Below, piece after piece: positions 53,409 to 61,790 of a stretch of DNA of 64,000 nucleotides; the first letter of the stretch is position 1, and each line of letters begins with the position of its first letter. Position numbers and translations under genes: made by a program. The DNA comes from a virus. The stretch is taken from the IMG/VR virus record IMGVR_UViG_3300020469_000010; one strand, written 5' to 3'. The notes beneath the pieces are model-generated. The model did not search any database and had not been told where the DNA came from. It worked only from the letters and a program-made list of their open reading frames with translations.

Positions 53409-54083
53409 ATGAGTGTTGATTATTCAATTTATTTTGGTGAAAATGAGGATAGCAATCCTGGTAATGAAGATTATATAATTCCTATATTTTCAGTTCCTTT
53501 ATTTCACTATAAAGTAGAAAATTGGCCAGAGAAAAAAGAAAAATTGATGGAATTATATAATAAAAGATTAGAAAGTAACATGTTAAAAAGAACTGGAGGT
53601 ATGAATGATGTAGAAACTGATTATCATGCTAATTTTGATAATGAATATAATTATTCGGATGATATCACTGACATCTTTGAAAGTGAATTAGTAGATTTTG
53701 CTGATGCTTCAGACTTGGCAATTTCTGTAAACTCTACATGGTTTGAAAGATCATCTAAAAATAGTTTACATTCATGTCATAATCATGGACCAATAGGATA
53801 TAGTGCAGTTTGCTTCATTCAATTTGATCCTAAATATCATACACCAACGGTGTTTATGAATCCAGTAACTGCTGCTGTTTCACCATGTAGTTTGATGCCA
53901 CCAGGAATAAGAGAAGGATCTTTAATTTTATTTCCATCATATCTTTTACATTTTACAAATTCTAATGAAAGTGATGTGGATAGAATTATATTATCATTTA
54001 ACTTAGAATCTGAAGAGGAAAGTCAAAAATTTTCTGATGATGATGATGCACATGACGGTGAATACTACTCAAAATCCTGCTAA
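53409..54083 (+). CDS. 2OG-Fe(II) oxygenase (TIGR02466-like)
   Basis: STW...HSCHNH...YSAVCFI...LFPSYLLH...RIILSFN. Confidence 0.85.
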   Translation: MSVDYSIYFGENEDSNPGNEDYIIPIFSVPLFHYKVENWPEKKEKLMELYNKRLESNMLKRTGGMNDVETDYHANFDNEYNYSDDITDIFESELVDFADASDLAISVNSTWFERSSKNSLHSCHNHGPIGYSAVCFIQFDPKYHTPTVFMNPVTAAVSPCSLMPPGIREGSLILFPSYLLHFTNSNESDVDRIILSFNLESEEESQKFSDDDDAHDGEYYSKSC

Positions 54084-54639
54084 AGTTTTTATTCTTCGTA
54101 ATTTTTTATTTGAAGATGATGTAAAAGAACTTAATCAGTGGACACTTAGGAACAACCATTTGCATTATTTTAAAGATGCTTGTATGGATCCTGATAATCA
54201 TGGGACGAGATTTACAACTCGACGTTGTAATGAAGAAATAGCAGGAGACATAGACTATCCAAAGTCTGCATATGTTATACAAAAAAGAATAATCAATTAT
54301 TTTCACCTAGAAGGATATAAAAGTCCACCATCATATAGTCATGGAATTGTAACTGGAATTGGATACGATGGTGGAAGAATAGAGAATCACATTGATCCTA
54401 CATACTATCCAGATACAAAAACAGTTCACTTCAATGCTATCACACAACAAGCAGAAGAGGGTGGACATACCATCATTGATGGTGTAGAATATAAAAATGT
54501 AAATCCTACGGATCTTTTAATCTATCAAGTATCTGAACTTCATCATGAAGTAACATCAACTAAAGGAAATACTCCTAGAATACTTTGGGTTTTTGGTTTT
54601 TGCCTTGACAACGAAAAAATAGAGGAAATTTTTTTATGA
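54052..54639 (+). CDS. 2OG-Fe(II) oxygenase
   Basis: HID...EEGG...HHEV...RILWVFG. Confidence 0.8.
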   Translation: MTVNTTQNPAKVFILRNFLFEDDVKELNQWTLRNNHLHYFKDACMDPDNHGTRFTTRRCNEEIAGDIDYPKSAYVIQKRIINYFHLEGYKSPPSYSHGIVTGIGYDGGRIENHIDPTYYPDTKTVHFNAITQQAEEGGHTIIDGVEYKNVNPTDLLIYQVSELHHEVTSTKGNTPRILWVFGFCLDNEKIEEIFL

Positions 54640-55361
54640 CAGTAGAATTGTTTGAACTTAATGACCTATCTAATATGAAAGTCATTAAATTTAATGATGG
54701 AGATAGTGTATCAAATATTTACTGGATGGATAATTTTTACAAAGATCCAGATGGTGTATTTGATTATATTCAATCTGAAGAACCACCCCTATGGAAATAT
54801 GGAGATGAGTGGAAAGAATTCATGGAGACTTCATTGAACACCAAAACTTTTGAAGACAGACGACATATGAGAAAAACACCATATTTAAAAAAGGTGTATA
54901 AAGCATTGTCAAAGTTTACTGGTCAGGATGCAATGGATTATGATCTTGTCACAAACTACACTAGATTTAGTAGAGTAAAAGAAAATCCATATAAAACACA
55001 TTATTGGTGGCCTCATCATGACGCAGGATATAATGGTATTTGCTATCTGACAAAAAATGAAGAAATTGGAACCAATTTATACAAACCATTAATTACCGAT
55101 AATCCAGAAATTTTACCTCTAGATGAAAATGATTCTTATAGAAATGAACATGGAATACCATGGACACCTAAAAAATTGTGGGATATTGTAGTCAGATTAC
55201 GTTCAAAATATAATAGATTTGTTATGTTTGAAGGATCTATGTACTATCATAGCATGGACTTGACTGGTAAATATTATTTTGCTGATCATTATAGTAATGC
55301 TGATTATCGTATCAATCAAGTATTCTTTTTTAGAAATGAATCATCTCCATATTCAGACTGA
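54636..55361 (+). CDS. 2OG-Fe(II) oxygenase-like (DUF6445-like)
   Basis: DNFYKDPD, PHHD, ICYL...GTNLY, KYNR.V.F....YH, RINQVFF. Confidence 0.75.
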   Translation: MTVELFELNDLSNMKVIKFNDGDSVSNIYWMDNFYKDPDGVFDYIQSEEPPLWKYGDEWKEFMETSLNTKTFEDRRHMRKTPYLKKVYKALSKFTGQDAMDYDLVTNYTRFSRVKENPYKTHYWWPHHDAGYNGICYLTKNEEIGTNLYKPLITDNPEILPLDENDSYRNEHGIPWTPKKLWDIVVRLRSKYNRFVMFEGSMYYHSMDLTGKYYFADHYSNADYRINQVFFFRNESSPYSD

Positions 55362-55367
55362 AGTATA

Positions 55368-56063
55368 ATGCACAAACATAAGATAAATCGCACTTACTAT
55401 GAGGACACTCATGAAGATAATAATCAAGAAAATGATTCAAATCATATAGAGATTCATGATGTACAATCTGAACAAATTTTTTCAACTCCAATTTGGAGTA
55501 TGGAAATTGATACTGATAATGATGCAATACTTGAAGAATGTTATGATTTAGAACGCAAATTTCCTAATGGAGTTCGTAAATCTAATGCAGGAGGGTGGCA
55601 AAGTGATGTATTTGAAATTGAAACTATAAGTCCCTTTATGACTCCTAAAATTCAAATTTTAGCAAGAAATGTAGAAGATATTACTTATGATTTGGTAGAA
55701 GAATTTGCCGGAGGAAAGAAAAATCTTTCTGCTAATGTTGGTAAAGATCAAATAGGATGGTGGATTAACATTAACAGAGGATATTCATATAATGTTTATC
55801 ACACCCATCCGGGATGTGCATTGATTGCATTATATTATGCAAAAATCCCAAATAATAAAGACGAAAGAGAAGGTAATTTAGTTCTCTTAAGACAAGATTC
55901 AATGAATCATAATAATGTATTTGCTAACATAGGAGAACTATGTGAGGCTAATATCATACCACAAGAAAAACATTTGTATATAATGCCTTCAGTTGTAGCA
56001 CATTATGTCACTGCACATACTTGCAATGAAGATAGAATTTCTATTGCATTTAATATTGGATAA
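55368..56063 (+). CDS. 2OG-Fe(II) oxygenase (TIGR02466-like)
   Basis: SNAGGWQS, WININ, HTHPG, YYAK, PS...HYV, RISIAFN. Confidence 0.85.
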   Translation: MHKHKINRTYYEDTHEDNNQENDSNHIEIHDVQSEQIFSTPIWSMEIDTDNDAILEECYDLERKFPNGVRKSNAGGWQSDVFEIETISPFMTPKIQILARNVEDITYDLVEEFAGGKKNLSANVGKDQIGWWININRGYSYNVYHTHPGCALIALYYAKIPNNKDEREGNLVLLRQDSMNHNNVFANIGELCEANIIPQEKHLYIMPSVVAHYVTAHTCNEDRISIAFNIG

Positions 56064-56099
56064 ATAGAATGATACTGAAATTTTTTGGTAGGTAAATAT

Positions 56100-56627
56100 A
56101 TGTCAATTCTACAGGCCAGTGGCATACAATTTGGAGATAATACAGTTTTAAATTCCAAGTATGGAATTATTCCTCAGGGAAGCAGTATGGTATTCTATAA
56201 ATCTTCTGCTCCAAGTGGATGGACAAAATCTACAGCACATAATAATAAAGCATTAAGAGTTGTATCTGGATCTGGTGGTGGATTTGGTTCTGGTGGAACT
56301 TCTGGACCGGGAGGATCTTCCTTCACTTCTATCATGGCAAGTAGAAGTGTTTCTGGATCAGTAACTTCGGGTGGTGCTGTTGGTAATCATACATTAACAT
56401 TGCAGCAAATTCCATCACATAGTCATAATGCAGGTTCTAGTGTAACTGTTAGTCCAGGTAGTCCTGGTACACAAGGTCGTGCTGTTAATAGTCAAGCACC
56501 TAATACAGGTAGTGCTGGAGGAGGTTCATCTCATAATCACCCATTTAGTGGTGGTACTTCTCCTGTTTCTGGTAGTGTTGATTTGAGAGTTCAATATATT
56601 GATGTTATTGTTTGTAGTTTTAACTGA
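56100..56627 (+). CDS. Short tail-collar/needle-type fibre protein
   Basis: FYKSSAPSGWTK..HNNKALRVVSG, HTLTLQQIPSHSH, GGGSSHNH, VQYIDVIVC; TAAATA at 56061. Confidence 0.75.
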   Translation: MSILQASGIQFGDNTVLNSKYGIIPQGSSMVFYKSSAPSGWTKSTAHNNKALRVVSGSGGGFGSGGTSGPGGSSFTSIMASRSVSGSVTSGGAVGNHTLTLQQIPSHSHNAGSSVTVSPGSPGTQGRAVNSQAPNTGSAGGGSSHNHPFSGGTSPVSGSVDLRVQYIDVIVCSFN

Positions 56628-56636
56628 GGACAATAA

Positions 56637-57923
56637 ATGGCAATTTTACAAACCGATGGCCTACAGTTTGGAAATGGTGGTGTAATTGAGACAAAATATT
56701 TTTTAGTCCCACAAACAACTCAGATGTTGTTTTATCAAGCATCTGCACCAACTGGATGGACTAAAAAAACAACACACAATAATAAAGCATTAAGAGTTGT
56801 ATCTGGAACTGGTGCAGGTAGTGGTGGTACTAGTAGTTTTACAAGTATATTCAAGTCCAGTAATACTGTATCAATGTCAGGATCTCATAGTGGATCTGTT
56901 GGCAATACAACATTATCTTTACAACAACTTCCATCACATAGTCATGGTGTTGGAAGTCCATTCAGCGCAGTCAGTTCTGCCGGTACTTCTCCATTCAGAC
57001 AACCACGAAGACAACCTAGATCATACTCTTTCAGGGCTGAATATAGACAACCAAGAAACTTTCGAGCTTCAGTTGCTTTCAGACGACCAATTCAGTTTAG
57101 ACAACCAAGAAATAGTCAAGTTGCAATTAGGCAAAGAAGAGACGTCAGATTTAGAAATGAACTTGAAATAAGATCAAGAAATCCGTTTAGATATAGAAGT
57201 CCATACAGACAACCAAGATCTTATAATACAACTGTATCAGTAAGATACAGGCAACCATTTAATAATAGAGTTGATTCTGGTAGAAATAGAAGTCCATCTA
57301 GACAAAGACGTTCTGTCAATTTTACAGTCAATCAAAGAAGGGAAGATAGGGGAAGAAGACGAGATCTAAAACGCAGAAGAAATCAGAGAAGAAGAACTGA
57401 TGTTCGTTTTAGATTGTCAGCTCGAGTAAGAGTTAATCAACGAAGAAGAAGCAACTTCAGACAAAGAAGACAGACTACTACTAACCAACCGGCAAGACAG
57501 AGAAGAGATGCTCGGCAGCCGAGAAGTTATAGTAATCAGGCTGATGTGAGACAAAGAAGATCTGACAGACAAAGAAGAGATGTCCCACAGCGTGCTAGGT
57601 ATCAAGGAAGGTTAAGAGTTGAAATTAGACAACCACGCAGATATCAAGCCTTTGTAGAATTTAGACAAAGTGCTGCTTATAGGCAACCAAGAACTTTCAG
57701 ACTAGCAAGAAGATACCCAGCAACAAATAATAATAGAGCAAATCAAAGAATATTGACACCCGGTGGAACTATTAGAGGAGTTAATACTCAAGGACCTGCA
57801 ACTTCGTCGGCTGGTGGAGGTTCATCTCATAATCATCCGTTTAATGGACAATCTTTCTCAACATCTTTAGGTCTTGATATAAGATTACAGTATATTGATG
57901 TTATTATGTGCTCTTTTAACTAG
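56637..57923 (+). CDS. Tail-collar/needle-type fibre protein with ~250-aa Arg-rich insert
   Basis: Same N- and C-terminal scaffold as upstream paralog; RQPR/RQRR-rich insert between the HSH and HNH motifs. Confidence 0.75.
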   Translation: MAILQTDGLQFGNGGVIETKYFLVPQTTQMLFYQASAPTGWTKKTTHNNKALRVVSGTGAGSGGTSSFTSIFKSSNTVSMSGSHSGSVGNTTLSLQQLPSHSHGVGSPFSAVSSAGTSPFRQPRRQPRSYSFRAEYRQPRNFRASVAFRRPIQFRQPRNSQVAIRQRRDVRFRNELEIRSRNPFRYRSPYRQPRSYNTTVSVRYRQPFNNRVDSGRNRSPSRQRRSVNFTVNQRREDRGRRRDLKRRRNQRRRTDVRFRLSARVRVNQRRRSNFRQRRQTTTNQPARQRRDARQPRSYSNQADVRQRRSDRQRRDVPQRARYQGRLRVEIRQPRRYQAFVEFRQSAAYRQPRTFRLARRYPATNNNRANQRILTPGGTIRGVNTQGPATSSAGGGSSHNHPFNGQSFSTSLGLDIRLQYIDVIMCSFN

Positions 57924-57973
57924 ACAAATTGTACATATTCTGATAGACTAAATAAGACAAAGAATTTTTTAGT

Positions 57974-58357
57974 ATGAGTGATGCGTTTGGAAAATGGTGT
58001 CCCTTAATAAGAAAAAACTGTATTGAACATAAGTGTGCTTGGTATATGCGTATTGCTGGACTAGATCCTAATACTGGTCAAGAAATTGATCATTGGGGAT
58101 GTGCAATAAGTTGGATGCCAACTTTACTTATTGAAAACTCACAACAACAGAGGCAAACTGGTGCTGCTGTTGAGTCTTTCCGTAATGAAATGGTCAATGC
58201 AAATGAAAGTAATCAACAAATGTTAGATGCTGTTGGTAACATGTATCTTGATATGTGCGAGCAACAGGGTGTCAATGTTGATCAATATATAGAACCTTTA
58301 GAAGGCATAGATAATAACGAAGAAAACATTTTACCACCTGAAGAGGAAAGACCATGA
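57974..58357 (+). CDS. Conserved Cys-containing protein associated with tail-collar genes
   Basis: CPL....C....CAW...G.DPNTG....WGCA..W.P.LLIENSQQQRQTGAAVESFRNEMV. Confidence 0.7.
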   Translation: MSDAFGKWCPLIRKNCIEHKCAWYMRIAGLDPNTGQEIDHWGCAISWMPTLLIENSQQQRQTGAAVESFRNEMVNANESNQQMLDAVGNMYLDMCEQQGVNVDQYIEPLEGIDNNEENILPPEEERP

Positions 58358-59691
58358 AAATTTCTATTATTCCACAAGATAATCGTATTGTAGTTGATGG
58401 AAAAACTGTAGATCTTGATGATAATGATATTAGGTGGGAATTTGAAGATGAGCATATTCATGCTATTCAGTGGAAAGATAGCATGGGTGAAGTTGAATAT
58501 GAAGATGAAATTGGTAAAGATCCTCTTCCCAATAAATCCTTTGGTCAGGATGAATTTGATACCATTGTTCAACCATACTTGTCTTTCTTTGAAAAATTTC
58601 TAACTGTTACAGAGCAAAATGAACTTGAGGCTATATTAGAAGAAGAAGAGAGATTAGCAAATGATATAAAAGAATCAGATCTTAATAAGATGCAAGAAGA
58701 AGAAAATATTTTAATGATAGAAGATCTTCAGTTACAAAATAAAGAAGTTAGACAAAATTATATGCAAATTGCTGCCGAATTAGGTGATGTTCTTGAAGAG
58801 AAAAAAGTAACTGAACAACAACTTAAACTAGAATATGATAAAGAATTGTTTGAAAAAGATCAATTGCTTAAGCAACAAGAACATGCAAAGATAGAGGAGT
58901 TTTTTAAAAAAAAATCGGCCGATTTTCTTGCAAACTTAGAAAAACTTGAAGAAGATTTTAATTCCCAGAAAGAAAATCTTGCCGAAGAAAAAAAACAATT
59001 TAACGACTATATACAAAAATATAGAGATACTTTAGAAAAAGAAAGTGAAGAAATCAATGAACAATTATTAGAAGGCAAAAGAAATGCAGAAAAAGATAAA
59101 ATTTTAAAAGAAAAGTCACAAGCTAATGCTGAAGAGTCAATGTCTATAATGAGGGCAGCAAATGAATTAGAACAGCAAAGTATGGAATTGGCATTTGAAG
59201 AATTGGAGTTAGAAAAAACTCGTTTACGGAATGAAAGAAGATTGGAAATTGAACGAATCAAACTTCTTGAAGATGAACTAGAAAAAGAAAAGGAAAATAT
59301 TGAACTGTCATACATCCAAGAAAGAGAAGAAATACTTAAGTATGATATGAAAGATGATGCAGAACTTACATTCTATCAGTGGCAATTAAAAGATACTGCT
59401 GAACTTGAAGCTGATTATATTAAAAAACAACAAGATAAATTCGACGATTACATTGCTGAGCGGGAAGGAACCTATAGAGATATTGAAGAACGCGTTCGTC
59501 TTAAAGAAATTGAAGGGAAATCTGAACTTAAAGAAGTTGAAGATGTTTCATCCATCCTTGATGAAATTAATCCAGAGGAATTTTATCAATCTCTTACAGA
59601 TGATCAAAGAGATTCAAATAGTTTTCCGGTAGAAAAAGCAACTGCTTGGTTTAAAAAACTAAAAGAGGTAATGGAAAAGAATGAATCTTGA
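58354..59691 (+). CDS. Tail-fibre-assembly-like N-domain fused to long acidic coiled coil
   Basis: IIPQD..IVVDG...IHAIQW....GEVEY then Glu/Lys-rich helical region. Confidence 0.6.
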   Translation: MKISIIPQDNRIVVDGKTVDLDDNDIRWEFEDEHIHAIQWKDSMGEVEYEDEIGKDPLPNKSFGQDEFDTIVQPYLSFFEKFLTVTEQNELEAILEEEERLANDIKESDLNKMQEEENILMIEDLQLQNKEVRQNYMQIAAELGDVLEEKKVTEQQLKLEYDKELFEKDQLLKQQEHAKIEEFFKKKSADFLANLEKLEEDFNSQKENLAEEKKQFNDYIQKYRDTLEKESEEINEQLLEGKRNAEKDKILKEKSQANAEESMSIMRAANELEQQSMELAFEELELEKTRLRNERRLEIERIKLLEDELEKEKENIELSYIQEREEILKYDMKDDAELTFYQWQLKDTAELEADYIKKQQDKFDDYIAEREGTYRDIEERVRLKEIEGKSELKEVEDVSSILDEINPEEFYQSLTDDQRDSNSFPVEKATAWFKKLKEVMEKNES

Positions 59692-61135
59692 TTTGTTGAG
59701 GAACAACTATTTGGTTGTTCCAAATTTTATTACCAAAAAAGAAGCATTAAAATTAAAGACGGAATTTGAATTAACAGATGAAGTTTTTGAATTTTCCGGT
59801 GATGAACAGGCACCTAATTCATCATCAATATATAATTATCTTCCTGCGTTAGAACTTTTAGCAAATAAAACATCACATGTATCTGAAATTATAGGTGAAA
59901 CTGTTTTACCAACTTATGTTTACTCCAGAATTTATCATAATGGGAGTGAATTAGTAAAACATACAGATCGTCCAGCATGTGAAATATCTTTAACTCTACA
60001 TCTTGGTGGAGATAAACCTTGGGCAATTTGGATAAAAACACCTAATAATAAAAATAAGTGTGTAAATTTGAATCCAGGTGATGCTATGCTATACTTGGGT
60101 TGCATTGCTCCACATTGGAGAGATACTTTTGAGGGAGATAATTATACACAGTTTTTCTTACATTATGTTAGGAGTCGTGGATGTTGTAATAGTGTTTATT
60201 TTGATAAACATGATAATGACAGTGATTTACCATCAAACCATAAATTGAATCATTTTTTAGAAAAGGAGTATGAACAAATGGGAAGACTTATTATACCAAG
60301 AAAATGGGAAGAATGTGATGAATTACTAAATGAATTTAATGAAAATAATCTTGAAATAGTTGATTCTGATTCGGAGTCGCAATATATTGATTTTGATGAT
60401 TCAAAATCAAAAATTTTTAGTAAACAAAAAGAACCTAAAATTGAACCCAAGTCAGAAGAATATTTTGATTTTGATGAAGTAGTAATTATCAACAAAAAAT
60501 ATGAGAAGAATTTTGTTGAAACAACTTCTAAAAAAGAGGTAAAAGATGTAAAAGATGCAAAACTTTCAAATAAAAGTTTGCATGAGTTTATACTGCATGT
60601 TGAAAATTGGATTGAACCAGATTTTTGTGATGAATTACTAAATGAATATGCAGATACTAATTTTTGGGAACCAACATTAACTGGTAGTGGATATGATCCA
60701 GGTTCTAGGAAATGTAATGTTATCAATATTTCTGACGAACATATTAAAAATGAAGCAAATACTGAGACTAGAAATGAACTTGACGAGTATCTATTTGAAA
60801 AAGTTTCAAAGTTAATTAACAAATATCAATCTGAGAATGATGATTTCTTGTTAGAAATGCAGGAAGATAGTGGATATGAACTGTTAAAGTATGAAGTTGG
60901 TGATTTTTTCCTTGAACATAGTGATTCTTTCAAAGAAAATCCTAGAGCTTTAACTATAATTTTTGCATTGAATGATAATTATAAAGGTGGTGAAATCGGA
61001 TTTTTCAAAAGAGAGTTAATTTATAGGTTAAATGTTGGAGATGCTATAATTTTTCCAGCTAATTTCATGTATCCACATGAAATTCTTCCAGTTACCGAAG
61101 GAATTAGATTCTCGGTAATTACATGGATTGTTTGA
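59681..61135 (+). CDS. Tandem two-domain 2OG-Fe(II) oxygenase
   Basis: Domain 1 HTDRPACEIS...HWR...FLHY; domain 2 HSD...YKGGE...FPANFMYPHEI...RFSVITW. Confidence 0.85.
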   Translation: MNLDLLRNNYLVVPNFITKKEALKLKTEFELTDEVFEFSGDEQAPNSSSIYNYLPALELLANKTSHVSEIIGETVLPTYVYSRIYHNGSELVKHTDRPACEISLTLHLGGDKPWAIWIKTPNNKNKCVNLNPGDAMLYLGCIAPHWRDTFEGDNYTQFFLHYVRSRGCCNSVYFDKHDNDSDLPSNHKLNHFLEKEYEQMGRLIIPRKWEECDELLNEFNENNLEIVDSDSESQYIDFDDSKSKIFSKQKEPKIEPKSEEYFDFDEVVIINKKYEKNFVETTSKKEVKDVKDAKLSNKSLHEFILHVENWIEPDFCDELLNEYADTNFWEPTLTGSGYDPGSRKCNVINISDEHIKNEANTETRNELDEYLFEKVSKLINKYQSENDDFLLEMQEDSGYELLKYEVGDFFLEHSDSFKENPRALTIIFALNDNYKGGEIGFFKRELIYRLNVGDAIIFPANFMYPHEILPVTEGIRFSVITWIV

Positions 61136-61790
61136 TATGAAAGATACTACATTCATTGGTGTTTATGATAATGTATTTACTAAATTACAATGTAAAGAAA
61201 TTATAGATTATTTTGAACAATCTAACGGTCGAACTATTATAGACAACGATGAAGCAATTCATCATAGAAATGATGAGCAACTTTTTATTCTTGATGACGG
61301 TAATGATGACGATAAAAATTATTCTGGTGATACAAAAATTTTTAATTTAGTCAATGATGGTGTGCAAAAATGTTATGATCTTTATCAAAAACGATACTGG
61401 GTTGTTAAAAAAAATGATTTAACTTTTGACCAAGATCATATTAAAATTCAAAAAACTTTACCTAGAGGTGGTTATCATATTTGGCATTGTGAGATAGATA
61501 GTTTACATATGGTTGACAGATGTTTGGTCTGGTTATTATATCTAAATGACATACCTAAAGGTGAAGGTGAAACAGAATTTTTATGGCAAGGTATTAGAGT
61601 ACAACCAAAAGCAGGGACGATGGTAGTTTGGCCCGCATTTTTCACACATTATCATAGAGGGAACCCCGTTTATTCATGTAGTAAATATATTGCAACTGGT
61701 TGGGGACATTATAGAACTGCCGACGAATGTGTTGAAGACTATTTTGAACGAGAAGAAGAAGACATCAATTTTATTAGGAGAAAAGACTAA
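61128..61790 (+). CDS. 2OG-Fe(II) oxygenase (prolyl-hydroxylase-like)
   Basis: GGYHIWHCE, YLND...GETEF, WPAFFTHYHRGNP, KYIATGW. Confidence 0.88.
   Translation: MFDMKDTTFIGVYDNVFTKLQCKEIIDYFEQSNGRTIIDNDEAIHHRNDEQLFILDDGNDDDKNYSGDTKIFNLVNDGVQKCYDLYQKRYWVVKKNDLTFDQDHIKIQKTLPRGGYHIWHCEIDSLHMVDRCLVWLLYLNDIPKGEGETEFLWQGIRVQPKAGTMVVWPAFFTHYHRGNPVYSCSKYIATGWGHYRTADECVEDYFEREEEDINFIRRKD

Follow-up and report, generated by a model that had tools for sequence, protein, structure and literature searches.

We analysed a window of 64,000 nucleotides, the whole stretch of DNA taken from the IMG/VR virus record IMGVR_UViG_3300020469_000010. With 34% GC it is AT-rich, and in character it resembles a T4-type cyanomyovirus. 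At 56.1-59.7 kb it carries four genes in one direction, which we call A, B, C and D. A and B share one scaffold of the fibre-tip type, and B contains a long insert that is extremely rich in arginine. C is a small protein with four invariant cysteines, and D is a large acidic protein. The subject of this work is the arginine-rich insert of B and its possible relation to D. The features of the cassette are listed below, all of them on the plus strand.

56062-56069, +: late-promoter-like box, GATAAATA, about 31-38 nt 5' of the ATG of gene A
56100-56627, +: gene A, 175 aa; stand-alone fibre-tip protein with a collar, a two-HxH head domain and a short tip loop of about 37 aa
56637-57923, +: gene B, 428 aa; paralog of A with the Arg-rich insert
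56637-56996, +: B scaffold, N-terminal part (aa 1-120), with the first HxH at aa 101-103; 54% identity to A
56997-57749, +: B insert (aa 121-371); Arg-rich array of hexad repeats, net charge about +60, predicted long beta-hairpin
57750-57923, +: B scaffold, C-terminal part (aa 372-428), with the second HxH at aa 398-400 and the QYIDVI end; 50% identity to the C-terminus of A
57974-58357, +: gene C, 127 aa; four invariant Cys, fibre-linked accessory protein (putative)
58354-59691, +: gene D, 445 aa; acidic protein with a Tfa-like N-domain
58354-58542, +: D N-terminal beta domain (aa 1-63), common to Tfa-type chaperones; predicted with a confidence score (pLDDT, see below) of about 80
58570-59496, +: D acidic helix (aa 73-381); one predicted alpha-helix of 309 residues, net charge -38
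59560-59691, +: D conserved C-terminal motif, D-P-E..LY..LT ... FPV.KA..WF..LK

For the start of gene A, the alignment of orthologues favours the ATG at 56100 over an upstream TTG at 56085.

The arginine-rich insert of B and its scaffold

The first-pass annotation of this DNA had placed A and B on one scaffold, and sequence comparison confirmed that they are paralogs. A aligned to both ends of B, with 54% identity to aa 1-107 (E 1e-32) and 50% identity to aa 352-428 (E 3e-20). The extra segment of B therefore lies between the HxH motifs; in A, this interval spans only about 37 residues. The histidines of these motifs were invariant in both families (H101, H103, H398 and H400 in 44 B sequences; H107, H109, H145 and H147 in 23 A sequences). 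The profile of A, built from 23 short relatives, matched two solved tail fibres, 9qgo (E 9.6e-9) and 9nxk (E 2e-5). The T4 gp12 and gp37 chains were not among the matches of the A/B scaffold profile search at E up to 1. The Pfam family Gp10_C matched A below its cut-off (18.7 versus 27 bits), the PHROG tail match of A was weak, and B, C and D gave nothing beyond weak matches in Pfam, PHROGs and NCBIfam.

Among cultured phages, Synechococcus phage S-SCSM1 is the closest relative. Open reading frames (ORFs) 244-247 of this phage are syntenic with A-D, and ORF245 (421 aa) bears the same insert as B. The HHpred searches by the S-SCSM1 authors assigned ORF244 and ORF245 to gp10 and gp12, with ORF245 matched to gp12 at 99.2% (PMC9602691 supplement). 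ORF245 was annotated by them as 'short tail fiber protein (T4-like gp12)', and the arginine insert was not mentioned (PMC9602691). Judged by their sequences, A and B each appear to be a two-HxH fibre-tip domain of the gp10/gp12/gp37 kind that stands on its own. Since the segment between the HxH motifs is the variable part of the scaffold alignment, the insert occupies the loop that is most likely to face the host.

The insert (aa 121-371) contains 79 Arg in 251 residues (31%), a single Lys, eight RQPR and six RQRR units, exactly as counted before. In the remaining ORFs of the window, Arg makes up 4.0% and Lys 6.0% on average, and no more than 17 Arg occur in any other stretch of 251 aa. The Arg codons in the insert are mostly AGA, which matches the rest of the genome. 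Between close relatives, the ratio of nonsynonymous to synonymous substitution rates (dN/dS) in the insert was 0.21-0.46, and in most pairs it was no higher than that of the folded scaffold. Arg positions were kept almost completely in close pairs, for example 75 of 76, 73 of 74 and 72 of 73 (range 70-75 of 73-76), and there were few or no indels. All indels were of whole codons, and the same frame was found in about 55 protein clusters and in the cultured phage. The low dN/dS, the retention of Arg and the scarcity of indels exclude that the insert is an artefact of a frameshift or a low-complexity region that drifts freely. The insert is thus a translated coding sequence under purifying selection. 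With the frame kept so widely, whole-codon indels and dN/dS well below 1, we give practically no weight to the explanation that the insert is a frameshift or assembly artefact and is not translated as read.

Across the family, the autocorrelation of Arg, of aromatic residues and of Pro peaked at lags of 6, 12, 18 and so on, and the hydrophobic residues of the insert alternated with a period of 2. The insert is a degenerate array of hexads with the unit aromatic-R-Q-P-(R/x)-x, in which the Pro at position 4 is conserved. The most distant members keep the aromatic-R-x-P core and have far fewer RQPR and RQRR units; P0054, P0057 and P0058, which are such members, show YRQP/NRVP units and few RxxR. 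Tandem Repeats Finder detected no tandem repeat at the DNA level in the insert, and Rfam detected no RNA family in the region. When the insert alone was searched by phmmer against 1.8 billion representative proteins, only four proteins were found, all of the B family.

AlphaFold2 (AF2), run with a 44-sequence alignment, modelled two 65-residue strands (aa 137-201 and 293-357) as one long paired hairpin with a predicted local distance difference test (pLDDT) score of 70-85. This model is in line with the long beta-hairpin tip that the first-pass annotation had suggested. The B scaffold, which is presumably trimeric, reached a pLDDT of 33-60 in the monomer model. Foldseek of the B model, which is of low confidence outside the hairpin, gave no match in the PDB at E up to 0.001. 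Based on the period-6 and period-2 patterns together with the AF2 hairpin, the insert is read as an ordered, extended beta structure that would leave and re-enter the tip domain, analogous to the gp37 needle. A left-handed beta-helix was also considered for the insert and was rejected. The hexapeptide repeats of that fold (PF00132) have the same period of six residues, but the insert has the unit aromatic-R-Q-P-x-x and lacks the [LIV]-G-x4 signature. It has no match to PF00132 or to any other Pfam family, and its model is a hairpin and not a solenoid.

In T4 gp37, the chain goes out along a beta needle and returns (PDB 2XGF), and the HxH motifs bind metal in knitted trimers. As in A and B, paired HxH motifs in gp37, gp12 and gp10 bracket a segment that exits and re-enters the domain. 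Unlike that of gp37, the extension of B has no His-metal ladders and instead consists of 40-60 hexads of Arg, aromatic residues and Pro. In contrast to gp37 and gp12, B is a stand-alone tip with no shaft. In the best profile matches, 9qgo (Photorhabdus PVC fibre) and 9nxk (Pseudomonas phage Pa223 fibre), the elements follow one another as in A and B: PxGW ... HxH ... loop ... HxH. However, their loops between the HxH motifs are tens of residues long and not Arg-rich, and they are the C-terminal domains of longer fibres.

About 55 full-length B clusters (411-515 aa) were found in marine metagenomes by protein search. The whole cassette was found in 21 distinct lineages by an alignment-based IMG/VR scan combined with single-contig look-ups; an IMG/VR scan with a single B sequence confirmed no relative. 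The gene order A-B-C-D is kept in 21 of the 21 insert-bearing lineages, and within clades the distance from one HxH motif to the other hardly varies (287 residues). On the scaffold tree, the insert needs one gain only. The relatives without the insert have two or three short tip paralogs in tandem. Tandem stand-alone tip paralogs of about 175-190 aa occur in three copies in L025, L028, L036, L038 and L042 and in two copies in L027, L065, L072 and L087. One locus, L090:3912-6305, carries two short tip copies and an insert-bearing copy. The scaffold family is already known, as is the presence of the gene in S-SCSM1. A full-text literature search on arginine-rich cyanophage fibres found nothing, and there appears to be no earlier description of the Arg-hexad insertion, its spread in the environment, its ordered nature or the acidic Tfa-like partner that covaries with it.

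The acidic protein D and the small protein C

D contains 86 Glu and 38 Asp among its 445 residues and has a net charge of -58. In BLASTP, its aa 1-50 matched CRP361_gp41 (E 8e-10) and PSSM2_030 (E 2e-5), both of which contain PF16778 above the cut-off (72 bits and 45 bits, respectively). All three genes come after a fibre gene and a C-like gene. The N-domain of D is common to Tfa-type chaperones, which agrees with the fibre-assembly-like domain noticed earlier two genes downstream. D itself had no Pfam match at E up to 0.1, and the C-terminal domain of PF16778 is missing. D resembles the Tfa-type chaperones (PF16778; PSSM2_030 and CRP361_gp41) in its N-terminal beta domain and its gene position, but has a 309-residue acidic helix and a C-terminal motif of its own in place of the PF16778 domain.

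The AF2 model of D consists of a beta domain (aa 1-63), a 309-residue helix (aa 73-381, pLDDT above 90), a disordered linker and a short conserved C-terminal helix. The predicted long helix would measure about 46 nm if straight, and 30% of its residues are hydrophobic. Conserved in D are the N-domain, a QNK..R motif and the C-terminal motif, and D406, P407, P425, W432, F433 and L436 were invariant or nearly so in 20 sequences. The length and the charge of the helix vary by lineage.

Within the insert-bearing clade, the net charge ranged from +34 to +78 for B and from -26 to -65 for D, with a raw Spearman correlation of -0.71. Phylogenetically independent contrasts (PIC) were calculated for 21 insert-bearing lineages, giving 20 contrasts; one of the near-identical pair L034/L035 was pruned and a minimum branch length was set. 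The net charges of B and D remained correlated (r = -0.65, permutation p 0.002), and a second tree from other genes gave r = -0.71 (p 0.0003). The partial correlation controlling for the acidic neighbour ox2 was -0.73. For five neighbouring control genes, r with the charge of B lay between -0.35 and +0.24 (-0.10 to -0.35, and +0.24). From the sequences, a positive fibre with a negative escort is a plausible description of B and D. The complex prediction for full-length B and D scored 0.00, which is evidence neither way.

A length 'ruler', in which the length of D would follow that of B, was tried and rejected. The PIC r of 0.81 came from essentially one split, the Spearman correlation was 0.31 and the sign test was 8 to 8. 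The covariation of length for which the first-pass annotation had suggested a search is hence not counted as evidence. The net charge of A (-3 to +7) covaried positively with that of B across the 21 lineages (PIC r = +0.69), a hint that the two proteins may have a common target or come together in assembly.

C is one of a strongly conserved family of small proteins (about 90-130 aa) in which four Cys are invariant and a helix has the sequence ENSQQQR..AAVESFRNEMV. Directly 3' of fibre genes of the collar/HxH type, C-like genes occur in P-SSM2 (PSSM2_029), in Roseobacter phage CRP-361 (gp40) and in a Ralstonia phage. The family is also present at L006:3986-4309, L004:2977-3288 and L005:2977-3288 and at about 60 IMG/VR loci. 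The phages bearing them are diverse and include cyanomyoviruses, an Autographiviridae roseophage and a Ralstonia phage. C had no relative in Pfam, in NCBIfam or, by profile search, in the PDB, and a protein atlas search with C returned unnamed viral clusters only. C may represent an unrecognised family of fibre accessory proteins or chaperones.

Proposed function of the cassette and its rivals

An ATAAATA box was found 25-43 nt 5' of gene A in 19 of 21 lineages, notwithstanding their diverged flanks. This box resembles the T4 late promoter, the consensus of which is TATAAATA. The mass spectrometry flags for virion proteins in the S-SCSM1 GenBank record mark ORF244, the orthologue of A, and do not mark ORF245-247. 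For ORF247, the orthologue of D, 26 good tryptic peptides of 7-30 aa would be expected, so its missing from the virion flags fits a non-virion helper.

We propose that these genes are a late-expressed fibre-tip cassette of a marine, S-SCSM1-like T4-type cyanophage. In this proposal, B is a late-expressed fibre tip of the virion with an ordered, polycationic, needle-like hairpin, C and D are assembly factors, and the helix of D was lengthened and charge-tuned as a shield. We give the proposal as a whole an even chance of being right. The variable distal loop between the HxH motifs of B has been expanded, in a single event, to 40-60 hexads of the type aromatic-R-Q-P-(R)-x. The chain is predicted to run out and back as a long beta-hairpin, and in a trimer this would make a thin, needle-like cationic tip with about +40 to +78 per chain. 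C, with its four Cys, and D would take part in assembly and not become parts of the virion. D would dock through its Tfa-like N-domain, and its acidic helix of about 46 nm would neutralise and shield the arginine arms while B folds and trimerises. The acidic helix is older than the insert in the chaperone family, and the insert-bearing clade would have lengthened the helix and tuned its charge to B. An anionic cell-surface polymer is a natural guess for the ligand, and Arg in preference to Lys suits bidentate contacts that survive seawater salt. A fuller version would make the cassette a kind of phage receptor-binding device not described before, in which a trimeric needle of Arg/aromatic/Pro hexads with about +120 to +230 per trimer needs a co-evolving polyanionic helical escort and is possibly hydroxylated by 2-oxoglutarate (2OG) oxygenases. 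This version is tentative, and we lean against it.

The proposed role of D has parallels in known systems. T4 gp57A is a small helical oligomeric chaperone of about 80 residues, which is needed for the trimerisation of gp12, gp34 and gp37. As a helical non-virion helper of HxH-type fibres, it offers a comparison of how D may work, although D has 445 residues and the likeness is one of mode. Nucleoplasmin, for histones and protamines, and prothymosin-alpha, for H1, are polyanionic escorts that are charge-matched to a polycationic client, and may serve as a mechanistic analogy only. Unlike D, they are eukaryotic and their clients bind DNA and are not fibres; they have no sequence relation to D.

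Several results weigh against the needle and its acidic escort. The centre of the insert (aa 201-291), which is its most Arg-dense part, was modelled with low confidence (pLDDT below 50). The orthologue of B, ORF245, is unreported in S-SCSM1 virions, which says little since ORF245 has only six usable tryptic peptides of 7-30 aa. In the helix of D, the power at the heptad period of 3.5 was no greater than in shuffles (p = 0.25) and the best period was 3.6. Because the heptad periodicity is not significant, the term 'coiled coil' is unproven for D, and the Glu-rich coiled coil of the first-pass annotation gives way to a single long predicted helix. The charge covariation rests on 20 contrasts, with a sign test of only 13 to 7. 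The single origin of the insert means that comparisons of its presence and absence amount to one event. In addition, relatives without the insert have D-like proteins of 162-186 aa (net -25 to -36), 258 aa (net -54) and 344-348 aa (net -68; L071:7473-8507 and L065:7473-8519, in cassettes without any basic protein), and at the insert-less loci no basic protein lies near the acidic D-like protein. Since these proteins are strongly acidic too, some of them as much as D or more, the acidity of D predates the insert and is a trait of the chaperone lineage that is not explained by B. The earlier idea of a charge-matched acidic chaperone thus holds in part. The net charges covary after phylogenetic correction, but acidity shows no response to the insert (-25 to -68 in the insert-less relatives). 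Regarding length, acidic proteins nearly as long (344-348 aa) occur without the insert, and D proteins of at least 421 aa occur only with an insert-bearing B.

The same low-confidence centre of about 90 residues, the extreme composition (Arg at 31%, plus aromatic residues), the lack of a PDB structural match for the B model and the acidic D-like proteins found where no insert exists would also fit another explanation. The insert could be mostly disordered, a flexible polycation that forms condensates or adheres to membranes, polyphosphate or nucleic acid, and D could be an unrelated generic chaperone. However, disorder does not account well for Arg residues conserved site by site, for a dN/dS like that of the folded scaffold in most pairs, for the strict hexad and period-2 patterns, for the nearly fixed length of 287 residues between the HxH motifs, or for hairpin arms with a pLDDT of 70-85. 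Similarly, a generic chaperone would not be expected to covary in charge with B beyond the level of the control genes. We consider this explanation unlikely, though it deserves attention. Far less probable, in our view, is that a protease cuts a repetitive precursor at the RxxR units and so releases short cationic peptides. The first-pass annotation had raised processing or modification sites as an alternative, and 23 overlapping RxxR matches are present in the insert of the window. But the unit conserved across the family is aromatic-R-x-P-x-x with a period of 6, and the distant members keep this core with few RQPR or RQRR, which argues against cleavage sites. Moreover, Pfam and PHROG scans found no protease gene in the cassette, and the insert splits a folded domain into two halves, which have to come together again.

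Little is understood of how marine cyanophages recognise their hosts, and most of their fibre tips lack annotation. If the ordered cationic needle of B is real, S-SCSM1-like cyanophages would adhere to anionic surface polymers through guanidinium groups at the ionic strength of seawater, and the needle might have a part in the broad host range that has been reported for S-SCSM1. The B proteins form an easily recognised and environmentally widespread family (about 55 clusters and one cultured phage), in which a known tip scaffold bears an extreme polycationic extension that is read as ordered. Should both the needle and its escort be real, they would represent a rare case of charge-matched chaperoning in a prokaryotic virus and a new principle of adhesion, and stiff polycationic protein fibres could be modelled on them as a natural template. 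S-SCSM1 on Synechococcus WH7803 is a system in which the readings of the cassette can be tested directly.

Flanking oxygenases and neighbouring genes

The cassette is bracketed by 2OG-Fe(II) oxygenases (53409-56063 and 59681-61790 in the window) in every insert-bearing locus examined. In the window they include the following genes.

54636-55361, +: putative upstream oxygenase, assigned via its S-SCSM1 counterpart ORF242, which is annotated as a 2OG oxygenase
55368-56063, +: upstream oxygenase, PF13759 2OG-Fe(II) oxygenase match
59681-61135, +: downstream oxygenase, PF13640 at the C-terminus and a PHROG named 'ferrochelatase' over the N-terminal half
61128-61790, +: downstream oxygenase, aligning to genes called PF13640 in related loci

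The upstream pair at 54636-56063 (ox0/ox1) was present in every insert-bearing locus examined and was not seen beside insert-less cassettes. The downstream genes (59681-61790), among them the oxygenase at 59681-61135, adjoin insert-bearing and insert-less cassettes alike. Oxygenases resembling prolyl 4-hydroxylase (P4H-like) also occur beside fibre and C genes in unrelated loci (L041, L043, L046, L050, L057, L075 and L079) and in P-SSM2 (piuC). Some collar-domain fibres in the protein search contain collagen repeats (PF01391). The oxygenases beside fibre genes, together with these collagen repeats, suggest that fibres may be hydroxylated by the neighbouring enzymes.

Compatible with the proposed needle of B, the 2OG-Fe(II) oxygenases might hydroxylate the conserved Pro, or the Arg, of each hexad and so form a fibre-tailoring system. 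The arrangement of ox0-ox1 upstream and ox2 with the P4H-like ox3 downstream, kept in every insert-bearing locus down to 33% B identity, is consistent with this idea, as are the restriction of the ox0/ox1 pair, the P4H-like genes near other fibres and the conserved Pro at hexad position 4. On the other hand, 24 such oxygenase genes are scattered over the S-SCSM1 genome (PMC9602691), and the adjacency may therefore be mere synteny within one clade. The substrate classes of PF13759 and PF13640 are broad. We regard such tailoring as rather improbable. Cyanophages have many 2OG-Fe(II) oxygenases that are unexplained, and the cassette provides a concrete candidate substrate for them.

Before the cassette, at 21165-51443, the window has very large ORFs in a row (1015, 1073, 882, 1855, 1505, 766 and 1037 aa). 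This run corresponds to the cluster of fibre, baseplate and virion-protein genes of S-SCSM1 (ORF225-236). Between it and the tip cassette lie an nblA-like ORF, a helicase gene and the oxygenase genes.

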